Shown piece by piece: positions 4,362 through 32,500 of a stretch of 64,000 bases of DNA. The first letter of the stretch is position 1; every line of letters starts with the position of its first letter. The translations under genes and the position numbers were made by a program. Origin of the DNA: Bacillota bacterium (GTDB lineage Bacteria; Bacillota; Clostridia; TANB77; CAG-508); the NCBI GenBank assembly GCA_963929525.1, contig CAWVJB010000020.1, positions 2,890-66,889 of the forward strand. The letters run 5' to 3'. The notes under the pieces were generated by a model that worked only from the letters and a program-made list of their open reading frames with translations, was not told the origin of the DNA and ran no database searches.

Positions 4362-4707
4362 AAAATCCCTCCTTAAAATGCATATACAATATATACATAG
4401 TTTAAAATTTAATATTTGTTGGAATTTTATACGAAATAAAATATTTGAATATGAATATATTCATTATATAGTGGAAAAAAGAAAAAGTCAAGAAAAATAT
4501 TTAAAGATAATTGTAAGAAAAGTGTCGAATTTTGCGATGAAAAAAACAATAAATAAACATAAACAATTGACAATCATAAAATATGGAAATATAATGTAAT
4601 TATATTTTTTCTATAATTTTTATCATTCATTTTTATCATTAATTTTTAATTTCAAGATGATTTCTCAAATGAACAAAAAAATAAATAAGTAAAGGAGGTC
4701 TGCCTAT

Positions 4708-5292
4708 TTGAATAAAAAGAAAACATTTTTGCTAGTGATTTGTATCATATTAGCCATGACATTTGCTTTTTTGGGAGGAAATGTATTTTCTAAATACTTG
4801 TCAGAAATAACAGGAACAGGAACAGCTGAAATAGCCAATTGGGTTTTTAAAGTCAATGGAAAAGAAGATGCAGTGCAAAACATAAATTTATTATCTACAT
4901 ATCATAATGAAACATTAATTAATAATAAAATAGCACCAGGAACAAGTGGAAGTTTCAATATTGTAGTGGATGCAACAGGGTCTGAAGTAGGAGTAGAATA
5001 TGCTATACACTTTTTAAATGAAAGTGAAAAACCAGAAAATTTAATTTTTATCTATGATAATGAAGAATATTTTACAATACAAGATTTAGAAAAAGATTTA
5101 ACAGGAATAATAAATGCAAATGATGAAGAAAAAACAAGAACAATTACAATTTATTGGGAATGGCAATATGAAACTGGAAACAATGAAAATGAAATTAACC
5201 AAAATGACCAAATTGATACAAATAATGCAAAGCAATTAGAAAACTATACATTTGATATCAATGTCAAAGGTATACAAGTTATGCCACAATAA
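4708..5292 (+). CDS. Secreted protein, paralog A, with TasA/camelysin-like signal region (function unknown)
   Basis: TTG start 9 nt after AAAGGAGG. Signal helix is followed by GGNVFSKY (compare TasA GGGTWAAF). KIAPGTSGSFNIVV and IYWEWQYE are shared with 6099..6722. Confidence 0.6.
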   Translation: MNKKKTFLLVICIILAMTFAFLGGNVFSKYLSEITGTGTAEIANWVFKVNGKEDAVQNINLLSTYHNETLINNKIAPGTSGSFNIVVDATGSEVGVEYAIHFLNESEKPENLIFIYDNEEYFTIQDLEKDLTGIINANDEEKTRTITIYWEWQYETGNNENEINQNDQIDTNNAKQLENYTFDINVKGIQVMPQ

Positions 5293-6098: not shown

Positions 6099-6722
6099 GT
6101 GAGAAAAATGAAAAAAAACAAAAAAATATATATGATGATCATCATCAGTTTGGTATGTATCATTTTGCTGACAATCTATTTTATACAATATGATTTTTTA
6201 CAAGAAGATTTACTATTTTTTCAATTATTCCATTTAAACACATATTCCAATGATAGCTCAGAAAACAATACTTCACAAATTCGTAATACGCAAAAAAATG
6301 CACATATGGAAACAATTTCTTTTTGTGTGCAAAATCAAAATAAAAAATTGAAAGCATTAAATTTAAATAATACTGTAAATAATCAAACTTTAGTAAATGA
6401 AAAAATAGCACCAGGAACAAGTGGTAGATTTGATATTGTATTAAAAAGCTATGAAACTTTAAATTATAAAATTGACTTTAAAAGCGAAAATAAAAAGCCA
6501 ACAAATTTACGTTTCTTTACATCTGAAAATAAAACGACATATAATACCTTAGAAGAATTAGGAAAAAGTTTAACAGGTATTATTTTTCATCATGAAGAAA
6601 AAACAATACCTATTTATTGGCAATGGGATTATGAAATTGATCATCAACAAAATGAACAAGATACCTTAGATGCCGAAGAAATTAAAGAATATCGATTTTT
6701 GATATATGTACAAGGATATTAA
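6099..6722 (+). CDS. Secreted or anchored protein, paralog B of 4708..5292
   Basis: EKIAPGTSGRFDIVL, SLTGII and IYWQWDYE align with paralog A. ATG at 6108 after AGGTGA is the more likely start. Confidence 0.6.
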   Translation: MRKMKKNKKIYMMIIISLVCIILLTIYFIQYDFLQEDLLFFQLFHLNTYSNDSSENNTSQIRNTQKNAHMETISFCVQNQNKKLKALNLNNTVNNQTLVNEKIAPGTSGRFDIVLKSYETLNYKIDFKSENKKPTNLRFFTSENKTTYNTLEELGKSLTGIIFHHEEKTIPIYWQWDYEIDHQQNEQDTLDAEEIKEYRFLIYVQGY

Positions 6723-24939: not shown

Positions 24940-27405
24940 TTCTTTATTCAAATTTCCATTTGTATAATGGCTACCGTCAAACCTTTGATTATTAAGCACT
25001 CTGTGAATAATTTCATTGATTTCTTCAATGGTTTCATCCAAAACATCAATTCTTGCATAATCAACATTGAATTCTTTGGGATAAATAGAGGTGATCTTAC
25101 TATTAAAAATCGTTGTAACTGTTTGAATATTATCAGGTAAAATTCTAAAATTCATATGTAAACGGTCTTTTAATTCATAAATATTATTGGTAATACATCT
25201 TTGCTTACAAGTTGGATAACATTTATCGGTTTCACCTAAAAGACAATAATTCATATTTAATAATGGTGTTCTACCATAAACGATAATTTCATTTGGTAAT
25301 TCTGCACAATTACACAAATCATGAATCATTTTTCTATTTAATTCAGGAGATATGGTATATCGGCAAATTCCTAAATTTTTTAATTCATTGATTGTATGAG
25401 AGTTATATACATTAAAGGTGTAATTGGTAATTAATTCTAGGTTTGTATTAAGATTTGCAAAAAGTGTATGTAATAATTTTATATTACAAATATTTGAAAT
25501 GACAAATCCTTTAATATGATAATTACTTAAAGTGGTTTCTATATTACTAGATAATAGATTTTTATAATTTGATTTGATAATAGTTGGCATATAAATGTAT
25601 ATATTAAATTTATCATCCAGAATATGTAAAATTTCTTGATAATCTTTCATAGAAAAATATTTTAAAGGGATATATACATTTTCAATATCATGAAGTTGTG
25701 TATAATCAAAATCCTTATGCAAAATGTTTAATAATAAAGAAATTTTTGTCTTTTTGATAGAAGAAATAGGCTGTTCCAAATCTTCCTTTTTTACTAGCTT
25801 GTCGATTTCTTTAGTTTCTTTTTTACTTGCAAAGATATTTTTATTAATAATAGAAGAATTTCTTTTCATTGTTCTTATGGCATATAGTTCTACCATTTGT
25901 AAAATCGTTCTTCTTAAATCATTTAATGTACTTAACTTCGGAATAAATACATTATGATCTAATTCGATATCTAAAGTTTTAAAAGCATAAGGAGTAGAAC
26001 CAGTTTTTGAAAATTGTGATATCACTGTATTTTTATCTACTGGTCTGGTGATAGCTTTTAAAGGAAGAATATCACTAGTATATTGTATATTTAAATCTTT
26101 ATATAATTCCATATTACTAGCAGATGTTACTGTAATAGAAATCGGTTTATTTTCCTTAATCACAATATGGCAATTTAAAAGTACTTTTCGATTTTCCTTT
26201 GCACAACTATTTTGTGCCAAAAGATTTAATTTTTTAGAACTCATTTTGAAAATCTGATTTCCTAATTTGATATTTCCTTTCATCCTACCAATTACAACTG
26301 TTTGACCAATTTCTGTAAATTTAATATTTTTCATATTTGTATCCATTAATTCAGAAATGGTATAAGTTCCTTCTTCTTTTTCTAAAGAAATGGTATCACC
26401 AATACCGATAGGTTCATTTAATTTAACCGTAATATATCCTTTTTTGGCATTATATTTTTGAACTTTACCTAAGAATAATCCCATATTGTTTGGCTTTTCT
26501 TTAAAGACTAAATTTCGGTTAGCTTCATTGCTTAAGTGACCAGAAGAAGACATACCTCTATTAAACACTTGTAATAATTCTTTCTTATCATCTTCATCAA
26601 TGATATATTCATTATCAGACAAGGCTAAATCTATATATTTTCGATAAATTCTAGTAACCGTTGCTACATATTCAAGTGATTTCATACGTCCCTCTATTTT
26701 AAAAGACTTTACACCAGCTTGAATTAAATATGGAATAAATTCTAAACCGCATAAATCTCTTGTACTTAATAGATATCCTAAATTGATAGACTTTCCATTT
26801 TCTAATAATTCAAAAGGAAGTCTACAAGGACCTGCGCATTTTCCTCTATTTCCAGAACGTCCACCTAACATACTAGAAAATAGACATTGTCCAGAATAAG
26901 AAATACAAAGTGCTCCATGGATAAAGGTTTCTATTTCAATATTTGTATTTTTACAAATATAATCAATTTCATTAACAGAAAGTTCTCTTGCAAGAACAAC
27001 TCTTTTAAATCCTAGTTCTTGCAATTCTAAAGCTCCATTTAAATTATGGACAGTCATTTGTGTACTAGCATGAATTGGTAAATCAGGAAATGCTCTCATA
27101 AGAGCCATAGCCAATCCTAAATCTTGAACAATAATGGCATCAATTCCAAATTCATAAGCTTTTTTGGCTACATGCATAGCAGATTCAAATTCTGTATCTG
27201 TTACTAAAGTATTTAATGTTAAATGGGTTTTAACACCACGGAGTTTTGCATATTGAATGGCTTTTTCTAAATCTTCAAGAGAAAAATTGGTAGCAAAAGC
27301 TCGCGCACTAAACATATCGGCACCAAAATAAACACTGTTAGCACCATTTTGTACAGCAGCTTTTAAACATTCAAAATCACCAACAGGAGAAAGTAATTCT
27401 ACCAT
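24934..27405 (-). CDS. U32-family peptidase-like protein (long form with DUF3656-like C-terminal region)
   Basis: MVELLSPVGD...AVQNGANSVYFG...ARELS, a typical U32 N-terminal barrel; 823 aa. Confidence 0.85.
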   Translation of the reverse strand: MVELLSPVGDFECLKAAVQNGANSVYFGADMFSARAFATNFSLEDLEKAIQYAKLRGVKTHLTLNTLVTDTEFESAMHVAKKAYEFGIDAIIVQDLGLAMALMRAFPDLPIHASTQMTVHNLNGALELQELGFKRVVLARELSVNEIDYICKNTNIEIETFIHGALCISYSGQCLFSSMLGGRSGNRGKCAGPCRLPFELLENGKSINLGYLLSTRDLCGLEFIPYLIQAGVKSFKIEGRMKSLEYVATVTRIYRKYIDLALSDNEYIIDEDDKKELLQVFNRGMSSSGHLSNEANRNLVFKEKPNNMGLFLGKVQKYNAKKGYITVKLNEPIGIGDTISLEKEEGTYTISELMDTNMKNIKFTEIGQTVVIGRMKGNIKLGNQIFKMSSKKLNLLAQNSCAKENRKVLLNCHIVIKENKPISITVTSASNMELYKDLNIQYTSDILPLKAITRPVDKNTVISQFSKTGSTPYAFKTLDIELDHNVFIPKLSTLNDLRRTILQMVELYAIRTMKRNSSIINKNIFASKKETKEIDKLVKKEDLEQPISSIKKTKISLLLNILHKDFDYTQLHDIENVYIPLKYFSMKDYQEILHILDDKFNIYIYMPTIIKSNYKNLLSSNIETTLSNYHIKGFVISNICNIKLLHTLFANLNTNLELITNYTFNVYNSHTINELKNLGICRYTISPELNRKMIHDLCNCAELPNEIIVYGRTPLLNMNYCLLGETDKCYPTCKQRCITNNIYELKDRLHMNFRILPDNIQTVTTIFNSKITSIYPKEFNVDYARIDVLDETIEEINEIIHRVLNNQRFDGSHYTNGNLNKEI

Positions 27406-27623
27406 AATTTCACCACCTTTTTTGAGTTTGATACTATATATTATTTAAAAAAATCTTTTTTGAACCAATTTTACCTAATTATACCATAAAATACTTGGAA
27501 TTTCTAGGTTACATAAAGTTACAATAAAAAGTGGAAAATATTTTATTGCTTATGGTTAGATAAAATAGAATATTATTAGAACATTTAGGAATTTTTTAAT
27601 AGCATTATTTTACCTATAACAAA

Positions 27624-27711
27624 CAAAAATGTGATTTAAATAATAAAAATACTTGCAAAAATGTGATAAAAGCAATAAAAAACTTTGCAAAAATGTGATT
27701 ATATGGTATAA
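27624..27711 (+). promoter_or_regulatory. Three phased direct repeats ending in an extended -10 promoter
   Basis: caaaaatgtgat at 27624, 27656 and 27688 (exactly 32 bp apart). The last copy abuts tggtataat (27703-27711). Confidence 0.6.
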
Positions 27712-27755
27712 TGATAATAGATAATGTATATATTATAGATGGGAAGTGTTGCCAG

Positions 27756-29057
27756 ATGAAAAGATTTATAATGGAAAAATTAATAAAATGGAAAGATAGT
27801 AAATATAGAAAACCATTAATTTTAAAAGGTGCTAGACAAGTAGGAAAAACATATATTATAAAACAATTTGGAGAAGAAAATTATGAAGGCATTGCTTATT
27901 TCAACTTTGACCATGATGAAGATTTGCACAATTTGTTTGTCAATACAAAAGATCCCAAAAGAATACTAGAGCAATTAGCATTCATATATGGAAAAGCAAT
28001 ATTACCAGGAAAGACATTGATATTTTTTGATGAGATACAAGAATGTCCAGATGCTTTAAATAGTTTAAAATATTTTCAAGAAGAGGCAAATGAATATCAT
28101 ATTATTTGTGCAGGAAGTTTGTTGGGAATCAGATTATCACATACATCCTTTCCAGTTGGAAAAGTAGAATTTATGAATATGTATCCAATGTCTTTTAGTG
28201 AGTTTTTAATTGCTGATAATTGTGAAAACCTAGTTGACTACATGAAATCTATTACAAAAATTGAAAATATTCCAGAAATATTTTTTAATCAATTAGAGGA
28301 AAAATTAAAAGCATATTTTATTATTGGAGGAATGCCAGAAGCTGTGTATTCATGGGTAAATGAAAAAAATATGGAATTCGTAAATGCCATACAAGAAAAT
28401 ATATTAAAAGCCTATGAAAGTGATTTTTCAAAACATACGCAAAATCATGAAGCAAATAAGATTTCTTTAATATGGAATAGTATACCATCACAATTGGCAA
28501 AGGAAAACAAGAAGTTTTTATATCAAACCATAAAAGAGGGAGCACGTACAAGAGAATATGAAAGTGCTTTAAACTGGTTAAATGATGCGAATTTGATATA
28601 TAAAGTATATCATGTTAACAAGACAGATTTCCCATTAAAAGCATATCATGATTTAAGTTGTTTTAAAATCTATATGAATGATGTAGGATTACTTAGAAGA
28701 ATGGTGAATTTAGATAGTAGAATTGTGATAGAAGGAGATAAATTATTTGAAGAATTTAAAGGTGCTTTTACAGAAAATTATGTATTAAATATGCTAACAA
28801 TGCTTTACGAAGAAGTTCCAAATTATTTTACTTTTGATAGATATGAAATAGATTTTGTAATTCAAAATAGAAATAGAATAATACCAATAGAGGTAAAATC
28901 TAATAAGTTGACAAGTAATGCTAGTTTAACAAAATATAATGAAAAATTTAATAATAACATATCCATTAGACTATCAATGAATAATTTAAAAAAGGATGAT
29001 AAAATTTTAAATATACCATTATTTTTGATAGAATATATGGAGAATTTAATAGACTGA
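27756..29057 (+). CDS. AAA-family ATPase with DUF4143-like C-terminal domain
   Basis: Walker A GARQVGKT, FFDEIQ Walker B-like motif and a C-terminal restriction-endonuclease-like fold (EIDFVI...IPIEVKS). Confidence 0.8.
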   Translation: MKRFIMEKLIKWKDSKYRKPLILKGARQVGKTYIIKQFGEENYEGIAYFNFDHDEDLHNLFVNTKDPKRILEQLAFIYGKAILPGKTLIFFDEIQECPDALNSLKYFQEEANEYHIICAGSLLGIRLSHTSFPVGKVEFMNMYPMSFSEFLIADNCENLVDYMKSITKIENIPEIFFNQLEEKLKAYFIIGGMPEAVYSWVNEKNMEFVNAIQENILKAYESDFSKHTQNHEANKISLIWNSIPSQLAKENKKFLYQTIKEGARTREYESALNWLNDANLIYKVYHVNKTDFPLKAYHDLSCFKIYMNDVGLLRRMVNLDSRIVIEGDKLFEEFKGAFTENYVLNMLTMLYEEVPNYFTFDRYEIDFVIQNRNRIIPIEVKSNKLTSNASLTKYNEKFNNNISIRLSMNNLKKDDKILNIPLFLIEYMENLID

Positions 29058-29076
29058 ATATTATAAAAAAATAAGA

Positions 29077-29120
29077 AATAGAAAATCATGTTAGTCAATA
29101 TGTGATTTTCTATTTTTTTC
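29077..29120 (+). terminator. Intrinsic terminator
   Basis: Stem aaatagaaaatca / tgattttctattt followed by a T run. Confidence 0.7.
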
Positions 29121-29222
29121 ATTTTGTTCGCTTGAAATGTTAAAAAAATAGTATATAATAGAAACCATAGGAAAGAGAAAAACAGATGTGGTTTGCCTCC
29201 TACATAATAGGAGGTGATGCAT

Positions 29223-29345
29223 ATGATAGAAATAGAAACTTTATTATTGATTATAAAATTACTATTTGCTGGTCTAGTATCAATAACTATCATTACATTT
29301 ACCTTAATTCTAGCAATCGTTGTAATTATGAGTAAACATAAATAA
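29223..29345 (+). CDS. Candidate type I toxin, 40-aa hydrophobic peptide (holin-like toxin style); not in the ORF track
   Basis: MIEIETLLLIIKLLFAGLVSITIITFTLILAIVVIMSKHK. AGGAGG lies 8 nt upstream. Own promoter ttgaaa-N16-tataat (29132-29159). The SD is paired in a cctccta/taggagg hairpin (29196-29214). Confidence 0.5.
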   Translation: MIEIETLLLIIKLLFAGLVSITIITFTLILAIVVIMSKHK

Positions 29346-29351
29346 AATACA

Positions 29352-29438
29352 AAAAAACACACATCTGTATTTTGCCGAAAAAGATGTGTGTTTTTAACAC
29401 TTCACGAGGCAAACCACATAGTGGTTTCTCCTTCCTAT
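29352..29438 (-). ncRNA. Candidate antisense small RNA convergent with the toxin mRNA
   Basis: Minus-strand promoter ttgact-N16-tataat (29472-29445). The transcript would end at the shared terminator and overlap only the toxin 3' end. Confidence 0.3.
29353..29395. terminator. Bidirectional intrinsic terminator
   Basis: aaaaacacacatct-N15-agatgtgtgttttt with an A run on the left and a T run on the right. Confidence 0.75.
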
Positions 29439-29530
29439 ACAAATATTATATCATAAAAATAATAAAAGTCAATAAATTTAGATAATCCTGAAAAATGATA
29501 AAGAAGTTCAAAACAAAGGAGCAAAGATAC

Positions 29531-32500
29531 ATGCAAGAAACGGTAAAAACAAAAAAAGTAGGAGAAATATTTCGTGACTATCAAACCAAATCCAATATAC
29601 AATATGCCAATATCCAAGGACTAAATGTCATCAAAAAGACAAATACATTAGAAGTCATGTTATATTTTGATGAATATATAGAAATCAAAGAACTATGGAT
29701 GTTTGAAAAATTTTTAATTGATCGATTTCATTTTGAACACATTGATATGATTATCAAATACCATGAAGGTGTTGTACTAAAAGACATAAAAACAGAATGG
29801 AGAAATATTATTGCTTACATGTCACACAAATATCCATTGATGAAACCCATGCTTTTATTAAAAAGTGATGTAGAAGTAGATGGAAATGAAGTCAATATCA
29901 AAATGCATATTCGAGGAGCAGATTTTTTAAAGGCAAAAAAGACAGACAAAGAATTAGAAAAGGTTTTGAAAAATTTATTTGGAAAAGAATATAAAGTAAA
30001 TCTTACAGAACAATTATCCAAAGAAGAAATAGAAGAAATACGAGAAGAAATCAAACAAGTAGAAGAAAAAGCCATTGCCCATATTGAAGAATTAAATGCA
30101 GAAAAACAAAGAGAACATGCAAATAATGAAAATTATGATGAATATGGAAATGTACCAGAATACAATGATCCAGATTATATACCACCTATGGATATGGAAG
30201 GATATATTCCAGAAGAGGCGATGGATGGAATGCCTCCAATGGAAGATATGGTACCAATTCAAGAAGAACAAGAATATATTATGGGAAAACCATCAAAAGC
30301 TAAAGAAAATAAAATAGCGATAAAAGATATCACAGCAAGTAACTCTAGAATTACGATAGAGGGAAGAGTATTAACAAGTGAATGCCGTGAAACGAGAACT
30401 GGAAAAGGCATGCTAATCTTTGACATTTATGATGGAACAGGAACGATTACTTGTAAATCATTTGCAAAAGATGCAGATGAAGGAAAAGAAATGATTGACA
30501 AAATTCAAGATGCAAAAGTAATCAAAGCAGTTGGAAAAGCAGGATTAGATGCCTATGCTGGTGATGTAACGATTATGGTAAATACGATTATGGTAAGCCA
30601 TATGGAAGCTCCAGAATTACCAGAAGAAGATGAAAGTACACCACTTATTTTGGGAATGAATCCAAACATCACAGAACCATTAGTGAAAATTGCAGAGTTA
30701 AATGTAGATGATGGAAAAGTTTCTATTGAAGGTGAAGTCATCGATATGGAGGATAGAGAGCTAAAGTCTGGAAAAACCTTACTTAGTTTTGATATCTATG
30801 ATGGAACTAGCAGTATGACATGTAAAGCTTTTCTAAATAAAGACAATAGTAAACGTGTCATTAAAAGAATCAAAAATGCCAAAGGATTAAAAATAGAAGG
30901 AACCGCACAAATGGATTCCTTCTCAAATGAATTAACCATTATGGCAAATACAATTGTAGAAGGTGAAGGCATTAAAAAGAAAATCAGAGAAGACCATGCA
31001 GAAGTCAAAAGAGTAGAACTTCATATGCATACACAAATGAGTCAAATGGATGCCATGACCTCAGCAACAGATTTAATTAAAAGAGCGATAAAATGGGGAA
31101 TGAAATCAATTGCGATTACTGACCATGGTGTTGTGCAAGCATTTCCAGAAGCCCATAAGTTATTAGGATATGATAATCCTGATATGAAAATTATTTATGG
31201 AGTGGAAGCATATCTAGCGCCAGATAACACAAAAACCGTATATAATGGCAAGAAACAAAACATAGATACCACTTATTGTGTATTAGACTTGGAAACAACT
31301 GGATTTTCAGCAACTACTGAGAAAATTACAGAAATTGGTGTAATGAAGGTAAAAAATGGAGAAGTGATGGATGAGTTTAGCTGTTTTGTCAATCCTAAAA
31401 AACACATTCCAGAAAGGGTTACAGAAGTTACCAACATTACAGATGAGATGGTAAAAGATGCAGAGACCATTGATAAAGTATTTCCAAAACTATTAGCCTT
31501 TTTAGGAGATGACAAGGAAACAGTAATTGTAGCACATAATGCCAATTTTGATGTTGGATTTTTAAAGCAAAATGCCAAAGTATTAGGATATGATTTTAAT
31601 TATACGTATTTAGACACGTTAAGCTTGGCAAAAGATTTATTCCCAGATTACAAGAAATATAAATTAGGAAAAATTGCAGAAAACTTAGGAATTAAAGTAG
31701 AAGTCGCACACCGTGCTTTGGATGATGTAGATACCACTGTAAAAGTATTTAAAGTCATGGTAGATATGTTAAAGAAAAAGGGAGCAACCATTGTAGAAGA
31801 TATTGACAGAGTAGCAGCCAGTGAAGAAGCCAAAAAAGAAGAATATAAAAAGCTAAAAACCTATCATGCGATTATCTTAGCGAAAAATTATGTAGGATTA
31901 AAGAATCTATATAAGTTAGTGTCTTTATCACATTTACATTATTTTTATAGAAAACCACGTATCTTAAAAAGTTTGTTAAAGAAATATTCAGAAGGATTGA
32001 TATTGGGAAGTGCCTGTGAAGCAGGAGAACTATATCAAGCCATTGAGCTTGGAAAAACAAATGAAGAAATCGAAGCAATTGCCAATGACTATGACTATTT
32101 AGAAATTCAACCAACTGGAAACAATCAATTCTTAATTCGAAATGGAACCGTTGCTGATGAAGAAGCATTAAGAGATATCAATAGAAAAATTGTAGAATTG
32201 GGAGAAAAACTAAATAAACCAGTTGTTGCCACTTGTGATGTGCATTTTATGGATCCACAAGATGAAATTTATAGACGTATCTTAGAAGCAGGGCAAAAAT
32301 ATGATGATGCCGATAACCAAGCACCACTTTATTTAAGAACAACAGAAGAAATGCTAGAAGAATTTAGTTATTTAGGGAAAGAAAAAGCCTATGAAGTGGT
32401 TGTTACCAATACCAATAAAATATCAGATATGTGTGAGCAGATTAGTCCGATATCACCAGAAAAATGTCCACCACATATTCCGGGATGTGAACAAACCATA

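Follow-up and report, generated by a model that had tools for sequence, protein, structure and literature searches.

A conserved membrane-peptide gene and its convergent antisense RNA form a probable type I toxin–antitoxin module in uncultured gut Clostridia

The 64,000-nucleotide stretch analysed here (hereafter the window) comes from a Bacillota bacterium (contig CAWVJB010000020.1), and the 475-bp gap between its AAA_14/DUF4143 ATPase gene (27711–29057) and polC (ATG at 29532) houses a compact unit of ~340 bp. In this unit a 40-codon gene for a hydrophobic peptide faces a convergent gene for a small antisense RNA, and both genes end at one bidirectional terminator. We found the whole unit to be kept in 128 distinct copies, and we consider it to be probably a module of the type I toxin–antitoxin kind that is self-contained and has been scattered horizontally. 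The initial annotation, made from the window alone, had proposed a toxin–antitoxin-like locus here and had asked whether it is conserved in related genomes, which it is; every element that it listed was found at or within 1–2 nt of the position given. With its complete regulatory anatomy, itself strongly conserved, the module establishes a peptide family that has had no annotation. Uncultured gut Clostridia with small genomes carry it widely, in humans as in animals, and their genome annotations miss both genes.

The copies were drawn from a scan that took one genome for each GTDB species and from a DNA-pattern scan of metagenomes, the latter with at least 120 loci. A nucleotide profile of the whole unit delimited 161 full-length modules of ~305–340 nt, 128 of them distinct; the 64-kb window holds a single copy by the same profile. 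The species-representative scan yielded 44 loci in 40 assemblies, all of them metagenome-assembled genomes of uncultured Clostridia, e.g., Clostridium sp. CAG:354, and the sources of the metagenome loci, as read from contig names, include human gut and Alpine shrew. The contigs of the nearest relatives carry the whole unit next to polC, and those of more distant ones carry it in other contexts. This comparison shows that the unit is real and under selection rather than a chance pattern in AT-rich DNA.

The open reading frame (ORF) for a hydrophobic peptide is present as first described, and the peptide of the window copy, MIEIETLLLIIKLLFAGLVSITIITFTLILAIVVIMSKHK, has an acidic N-terminus, one lysine (K12) ahead of a 24-residue uncharged stretch (L13–M36) and a four-residue basic end. 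The tail had been called lysine-rich, a description that does not hold: it reads SKHK here and SKQK in most relatives, and is short and basic. An intact ORF of 36–43 codons occurs in 126 of the 128 distinct copies, one of the others being frameshifted and one lacking a Shine–Dalgarno sequence (SD). In the first 55 distinct copies the spacing from GGAGG to ATG is 8 nt (7 in one case), and a protein-level alignment of the same set contains insertions and deletions of whole codons only. The summed column entropies at codon positions 1, 2 and 3 are 22.2, 8.4 and 22.3, with the second position the most constrained, a profile that looks like that of a hydrophobic helix swapping I, V, L, A and T. The median pairwise ratio of nonsynonymous to synonymous substitution rates (dN/dS) is 0.40, and the segments VTII and LLF.GLV are nearly invariant in the family. 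A profile search of 1.84 billion protein representatives returned 54 clusters at 50% identity, all with the same 36–43-residue core; the longer hits are mis-called starts that translate the leader containing the SD and its complement (anti-SD). In a separate protein search, eight close clusters were found, and all of them come from animal or human gut metagenomes. The ORF is thus a gene under purifying selection. A 49-codon overlapping ORF (29186–29335, beginning MWFAS) was rejected as coding, as the frame of its ATG agrees with that of the peptide in part of the copies only. The conserved upstream sequence ATGTGGTTTGCCTCC, which corresponds to MWFAS, likewise changes frame from copy to copy, so the leader is conserved as RNA and not as protein. 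A 5-codon ORF in the antisense RNA of the window was also rejected, its ATG being absent in most copies.

The SD of the peptide gene, AGGAGG at 29209–29214, sits 8 nt before the ATG. It had been described as a strong SD locked in a 7-bp hairpin, and RNAfold indeed predicts pairing of cctccta (29196–29202) with taggagg (29208–29214), plus a closing G–U pair (29195/29215). Furthermore, this sequestration is kept family-wide, as the minimum free energy (MFE) structure of the leader pairs every base of GGAGG in 127 of 127 SD-bearing copies. Three anti-SD solutions were found, namely GCCUCC(UA), CAUCUCUU and CCACCU, the last of which pairs across a 55-nt insertion.

Both promoters that had been noted, one of the peptide gene's own and a convergent one on the minus strand, are present (Table 1). 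In the AT-rich window, promoter-like hexamers by themselves do not exceed chance (16 found against 13.4 expected), and hence their significance rests on the conservation of the whole unit in the 128 distinct copies. The antisense promoter is near-consensus in every copy, scoring 11–12 of 12 in all 127 copies compared, versus a mean of 9.5 of 12 for the more variable and weaker mRNA promoter in the same 127 copies. A strong antitoxin promoter opposed to a weak toxin promoter is typical of type I systems. The motif GTTCGCTTG (29132–29140) overlaps the −35 box of the peptide promoter and is conserved in many, not all, copies across contexts; it may be a UP-like or regulator site.

The bidirectional terminator, too, is present where it had been placed, and it covaries across copies. 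Its arms (29353–29366 and 29382–29395) are 100% complementary in the window, and both-side changes occur in 7 of 11 stem pairs among the copies. A simple terminator scan of the window found nothing at this site because the 15-nt loop exceeds the 8-nt limit of the scan. The A-run, which forms the U-tract of the antisense RNA, has at least 6 A in 9 positions in all 117 distinct sequences, and the T-run that serves the mRNA direction is weak, with at most 4 T in 9, in 22 of the 117. The antisense RNA has a predicted start near 29438 and would end at this common terminator. Its own 5′ hairpin is paired in 95.4% of alignment cells over the 117 distinct sequences, with no double changes.

Table 1. 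Elements of the peptide–antisense RNA module, in window coordinates
Feature	Position	Strand	Details
Promoter of the peptide mRNA	29132–29159	+	TTGAAA-16-TATAAT; 11/12 matches; predicted start near 29167
5′ leader of the peptide mRNA, left arm of the 33-nt inverted repeat	29167–29199	+	Purine-rich; co-varies with the antisense leader
Anti-SD/SD hairpin	29195–29215	+	gCCTCCTA-cataa-TAGGAGGt; buries AGGAGG
ORF, 40 codons, single-pass hydrophobic peptide	29223–29345	+	ATG at 29223, TAA at 29345
Predicted antisense small RNA, ~90 nt	29348–29438	-	Leader, 5′ hairpin, terminator; folding free energy −25.8, z-score −3.3
Bidirectional intrinsic terminator	29353–29395		14-bp stem, 15-nt loop; A-run upstream, T-run downstream; from repeat search and folds
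Right arm of the 33-nt inverted repeat	29406–29438		Carries the direct-repeat copy GTGGTTTCTCC (29421–29431); compare GTGGTTT-GC-CTCC at 29188–29200
5′ hairpin of the antisense RNA	29411–29427	-	AAACCAC-UAU-GUGGUUU, read on the minus strand
Promoter of the antisense RNA	29445–29472	-	TTGACT-16-TATAAT, TG-extended; 11/12 matches

The two RNAs are related to each other at their 5′ ends as well. A 14-nt inverted repeat had been noted at 29186 and 29406; it is exact, with two matches in the window against 0.25 expected, and we found it to be the core of a 33-nt, 82% inverted repeat. The longer repeat begins exactly at both predicted starts, so that the convergent RNAs would open with nearly the same 33 nt. 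Because the antisense leader is itself a hairpin, the locus contains a direct repeat too: the segment GTGGTTT-GC-CTCC of the mRNA leader recurs as GTGGTTT-CTCC in the right arm, and a 2-nt indel between them caused the repeat finder to overlook it. Owing to this direct repeat, the anti-SD arm of the mRNA has a complement in the antisense RNA, namely its 5′ arm (GGAGAAACCAC). The initial concern that an inverted repeat would make the RNAs share sequence instead of pairing was thus right in that the leaders are alike and co-evolve, but it missed the complementarity to the anti-SD arm that the direct repeat adds.

To place these elements in a mechanism we turn to the predicted RNA pairing. Cofolding of the terminated mRNA with the antisense RNA (RNAcofold) gave a 53-bp duplex of the 3′ ends with a gain of −50 kcal/mol (ddG), which is predicted to be the thermodynamically dominant contact. 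The predicted heterodimer leaves both 5′ hairpins intact, the SD lock included, and does not use the direct repeat. Pairing of leader with leader in trans is not favoured as the main contact: an unconstrained duplex reaches −23.9 kcal/mol, versus −28.6 kcal/mol for the two intramolecular folds. Given the strong 3′ duplex and the too weak leader–leader pairing, repression in two layers is the best-supported mechanism. We infer that both RNAs are made and that they pair in vivo, as follows. The weak promoter would drive a ~230-nt mRNA for a 40-residue, single-pass membrane peptide, on which the upstream anti-SD would hold the SD in a local hairpin; this first layer acts in cis, and the primary transcript would consequently be poorly translated. 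The near-consensus convergent promoter would supply an abundant RNA of ~90 nt that ends at the bidirectional terminator of both genes. In the second layer, pairing probably begins at the terminator loops and zips into a perfect duplex of ~53 nt. As with TxpA/RatA and BsrG/SR4, this duplex would be a substrate of RNase III; stripped of its protective 3′ hairpin, the mRNA would then decay, and the synthesis of a putatively toxic peptide would be kept low.

The terminator loop, where this pairing is proposed to begin, is the most variable part of the module and differs even between paralogs in one array, and full complementarity at the loop is restricted to the cognate pair. On its 5′ side the loop (29367–29381 and the aligned columns) keeps YUUG/UUGR in nearly all copies. 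Kissing in par RNA I starts at a YUNR U-turn (PMC7472228), and the motif seen here is compatible with it; being of low information, it serves as a lead only. In a three-copy array (L048), two successive paralogs have the loops AACTCGCCAAAGTT and AACTTTGGCGAGTT (4586–4599 and 5149–5162), which are exact reverse complements of each other on an unchanged stem; such a flipped loop would swap which RNAs can kiss. Orphan antisense genes were observed elsewhere, with promoter, leader, hairpin and terminator and no peptide ORF, as read at two loci (L092, 3659–3768; L070, 1685–1783); a third site (L076, 5779–5873) is a partial profile match only. In L092 a complete module (6214–6512) lies 2.5 kb from the orphan, and its antisense gene has nearly the same sequence as the orphan. 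Together, the 128 distinct copies, with their paralog arrays, divergent or flipped loops and orphan antisense genes, are a resource on the specificity of cognate RNA pairs.

The architecture most closely parallels par (Fst with RNA I and RNA II) of the Enterococcus faecalis plasmid pAD1 and its chromosomal relatives, which has been reviewed (PMC7472228). Shared with par are the convergent promoters, the common bidirectional terminator with complementary loops at which pairing can begin, a 5′ stem-loop of the toxin mRNA that hides its SD, and a small single-pass hydrophobic peptide. In both systems, too, a repeat gives the two RNAs sequence complementarity in their 5′ parts. There are also clear differences. 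The PXXXG(C) motif of Fst/Ldr is missing here, the consensus core containing no proline (one of 39 diverse members has one), and the tail has 3–4 residues in place of the long charged tail of Fst. In contrast to DRa/DRb of par, the single direct repeat covers the anti-SD arm and not the SD or start codon. The alike leaders that form the inverted repeat are not a par feature, and unlike the 5′-UH of par, the 5′ 18 nt of the terminated mRNA are unpaired in the predicted fold here and would become paired only upon read-through.

In TxpA/RatA and BsrG/SR4 of Bacillus subtilis, the genes likewise converge and share sequence at the 3′ ends, where they overlap. The BsrG peptide has a comparable layout, with an acidic N-terminus, one transmembrane helix and a short basic C-terminus, and BsrG/SR4 sits in a prophage-like element. 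The txpA–RatA pair lies in the skin element, and its antitoxin is thought to act mainly via a duplex cut by RNase III (PMC6563280). In plasmid and phage records no such link was found for the module described here, in contrast to both. With hok/sok of plasmid R1 the module shares a possible long-range pairing between the 5′ and 3′ parts of the mRNA and a translationally inert primary transcript. However, hok/sok is a Gram-negative family whose antisense RNA overlaps the mRNA at its 5′ end, the overlap here being at the 3′ end; furthermore, the 3′ partner here lies beyond an intrinsic terminator, inside the antisense gene, and there is no mok-like frame.

Within the Clostridia, type I systems are known essentially only from C. 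difficile, together with a few Fst/TxpA-like hits (PMC6563280). The C. difficile modules CD2517.1–RCd8, CD2907.1–RCd9 and CD0956.2–RCd10 and their prophage relatives are also convergent, overlapping, previously unannotated genes, and they too lack homology to other toxin families (PMC6563280). Their toxins, however, have 50–53 residues and a lysine-rich C-terminus and lie by CRISPR arrays or in prophages, versus 36–43 residues and an SKHK/SKQK tail here. An association with prophages like that of the C. difficile toxins was looked for here, with no real phage match and no PHROG match for module or peptide.

The window peptide and diverse family members gave nothing meaningful in Pfam, NCBIfam, PHROGs, PADLOC or a PDB profile search. 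An Rfam scan of 27000–31000 at E ≤ 10 gave noise only, with Thr_leader as the best hit (E = 2.5, 19.5 bits against a gathering score of 55), and a literature search with substrings of the peptide found no papers. Judged from sequence, the unit nevertheless has the generic features of a type I system, i.e., a small (<60 residues), hydrophobic, conserved peptide and a convergent antisense gene with predicted pairing. Hence the initial Fst/TxpA/BsrG-type reading stands for the architecture (a locked mRNA, a convergent RNA and a common terminator) but not for a family relationship. The module appears to be of the type I kind and to lie outside every named family, with a peptide family that would be new.

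Several observations weigh against a toxin–antitoxin module. The search against hidden Markov models of known toxins that the initial annotation had recommended returned no match to Fst, Ldr, TxpA, BsrG, holin-like or other toxin models for any of 39 diverse members, even at E ≤ 10. The peptide is without the long charged tail of most type I toxins, and the overlap of the two RNAs, the terminator only (~50 nt), is shorter than the overlaps of TxpA/RatA and BsrG/SR4. The complementarity provided by the direct repeat targets the anti-SD arm and not the SD, and pairing there would open the ribosome site. The two-layer model, moreover, gives no account of how the peptide ever gets translated. Finally, BLASTN of the module against plasmids and phages found no carrier, its sole match being a 39-nt AT-rich stretch in two Methylophilales phages that we judged spurious; with no plasmid or phage carrier, there is no addiction context.

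Some of these features would fit a non-toxin with the same anatomy, that is, an ordinary small membrane protein that might, for example, modulate a membrane complex or act in a stress response and whose synthesis is tuned by a cis-antisense RNA and an SD hairpin. We regard this as unlikely, while giving it appreciable weight. The strong conservation of the peptide (VTII, LLF.GLV and the dN/dS of 0.4) suits a specific interaction at least as well as membrane damage, and the short tail and the missing link to mobile elements point the same way. However, housekeeping small proteins keep a fixed operon context, and the module is multicopy, forms tandem arrays, is scattered over unrelated contexts and has given rise to orphan antisense genes; a strong antisense promoter opposing a weak, locked mRNA completes a combination of copy behaviour and regulation that is a signature of type I toxin–antitoxin systems.

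The alike leaders raise a further possibility about the regulation. The first ~14 nt of both RNAs stay alike family-wide, with several independent co-changes, and an mRNA that reads through the terminator could pair its 3′ extension with its own 5′ leader, as fbi and tac do in hok. The antisense RNA, which has the same leader and is perfectly complementary to the extension, would then compete and toggle the stability of the mRNA or the exposure of its SD. To our knowledge, control by sequence identity rather than only by complementarity has not been described for type I systems. In addition to the coincidence of the 33-nt repeat with both predicted starts, the read-through RNA folds with z-scores of −7.5, −7.9 and −5.6 in three divergent copies, and the fold-back helix has both-side changes in 11 of 12 pairs, with pairing in 88.6% of cells. 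Sliding the partners by 1–3 columns lowers pairing over the whole tested structure from 91.6% to at most 55%. Cognate duplexes of leader and 3′ end are stronger than non-cognate ones (−14.3 vs −12.3 kcal/mol, p = 4e-10), the plus-direction U-tract is weak or absent in the 22 of 117 copies mentioned above, and in the window copy GAGG of the SD is unpaired in the read-through MFE structure, whose fold-back takes GCCUC from the SD lock. However, the covariation would look no different if it came from gene conversion between inverted arms 200 bp apart, the plus-direction terminator is reasonable in most copies, and no conserved second terminator is present to set the 3′ end. Furthermore, the strength of the fold-back does not track the weakness of the U-tract (p = 0.17), and its effect on the SD differs among copies. 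Because of these last two results, we consider a functional fold-back or leader-mimic mechanism quite improbable. The copy set described here can be used to test whether the co-evolving identical leaders reflect fold-back or mimicry.

That the unit is a functionless selfish repeat of the miniature inverted-repeat transposable element (MITE) type, or a chance ORF with chance hairpins in AT-rich intergenic DNA, is extremely unlikely: the flanking inverted repeat, the multiple copies, their variable locations and the commonness of promoter-like hexamers in this DNA would suit it, but the ORF is intact and periodic by codon position, SD sequestration is kept through compensatory solutions, and there are neither target-site duplications nor a transposase. 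The MITE was rejected since conservation runs ~35–40 bp past the inverted repeat on both sides, where it takes the form of variably spaced −10 and −35 boxes rather than of terminal repeats, and since selection acts on the ORF.

The genomic behaviour of the probable toxin–antitoxin module varies with lineage. Placement upstream of polC is found in the clade of the window only, on which ground a polC-specific leader or upstream ORF was rejected. In nine species or loci the module directly follows tRNA-Gly(gcc)–tRNA-Cys(gca), and in others it has different neighbours. Tandem arrays hold 2–3 diverged copies spaced ~500–560 bp apart. In the arrays that follow the tRNA-Gly/tRNA-Cys pair (L048, L002 and L001), most spacers between modules contain a piece of ~45 nt that resembles a tRNA 3′ end (…GACTATGCCTTCA or …CTCCA), at 4745–4790 and 5320–5400 of L048, 555–660 of L002 and 1340–1440 of L001. 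The piece is followed by a strong hairpin terminator (AATCTTGTAA…TTACAAGATT) and is not called as a tRNA by ARAGORN or Rfam; insertions may have occurred repeatedly at a tRNA end and left it behind. On one 627-bp contig (L005, 1–627), an AT-rich module lies directly upstream of a GC-rich ThiF/TcdA-like gene fragment; either the assembly is chimeric, or the module was transferred to a genome of a very different kind.

In the window, the ATPase gene upstream of the module ends in a terminator hairpin of its own (arms 29066–29088 and 29103–29125). This gene (+ strand) matches the PADLOC candidate anti-phage defence family PDC-S01 with E = 2e-176, and it accompanies the module in the closest relatives (L011–L016 and L018). 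In two others (L006 and L008), whose contigs are short, the ~200 nt upstream of the module are different, with a 30-residue gene as the only one called there, and so the ATPase gene apparently does not abut the module in them. The site upstream of polC may be a hotspot for accessory genes.

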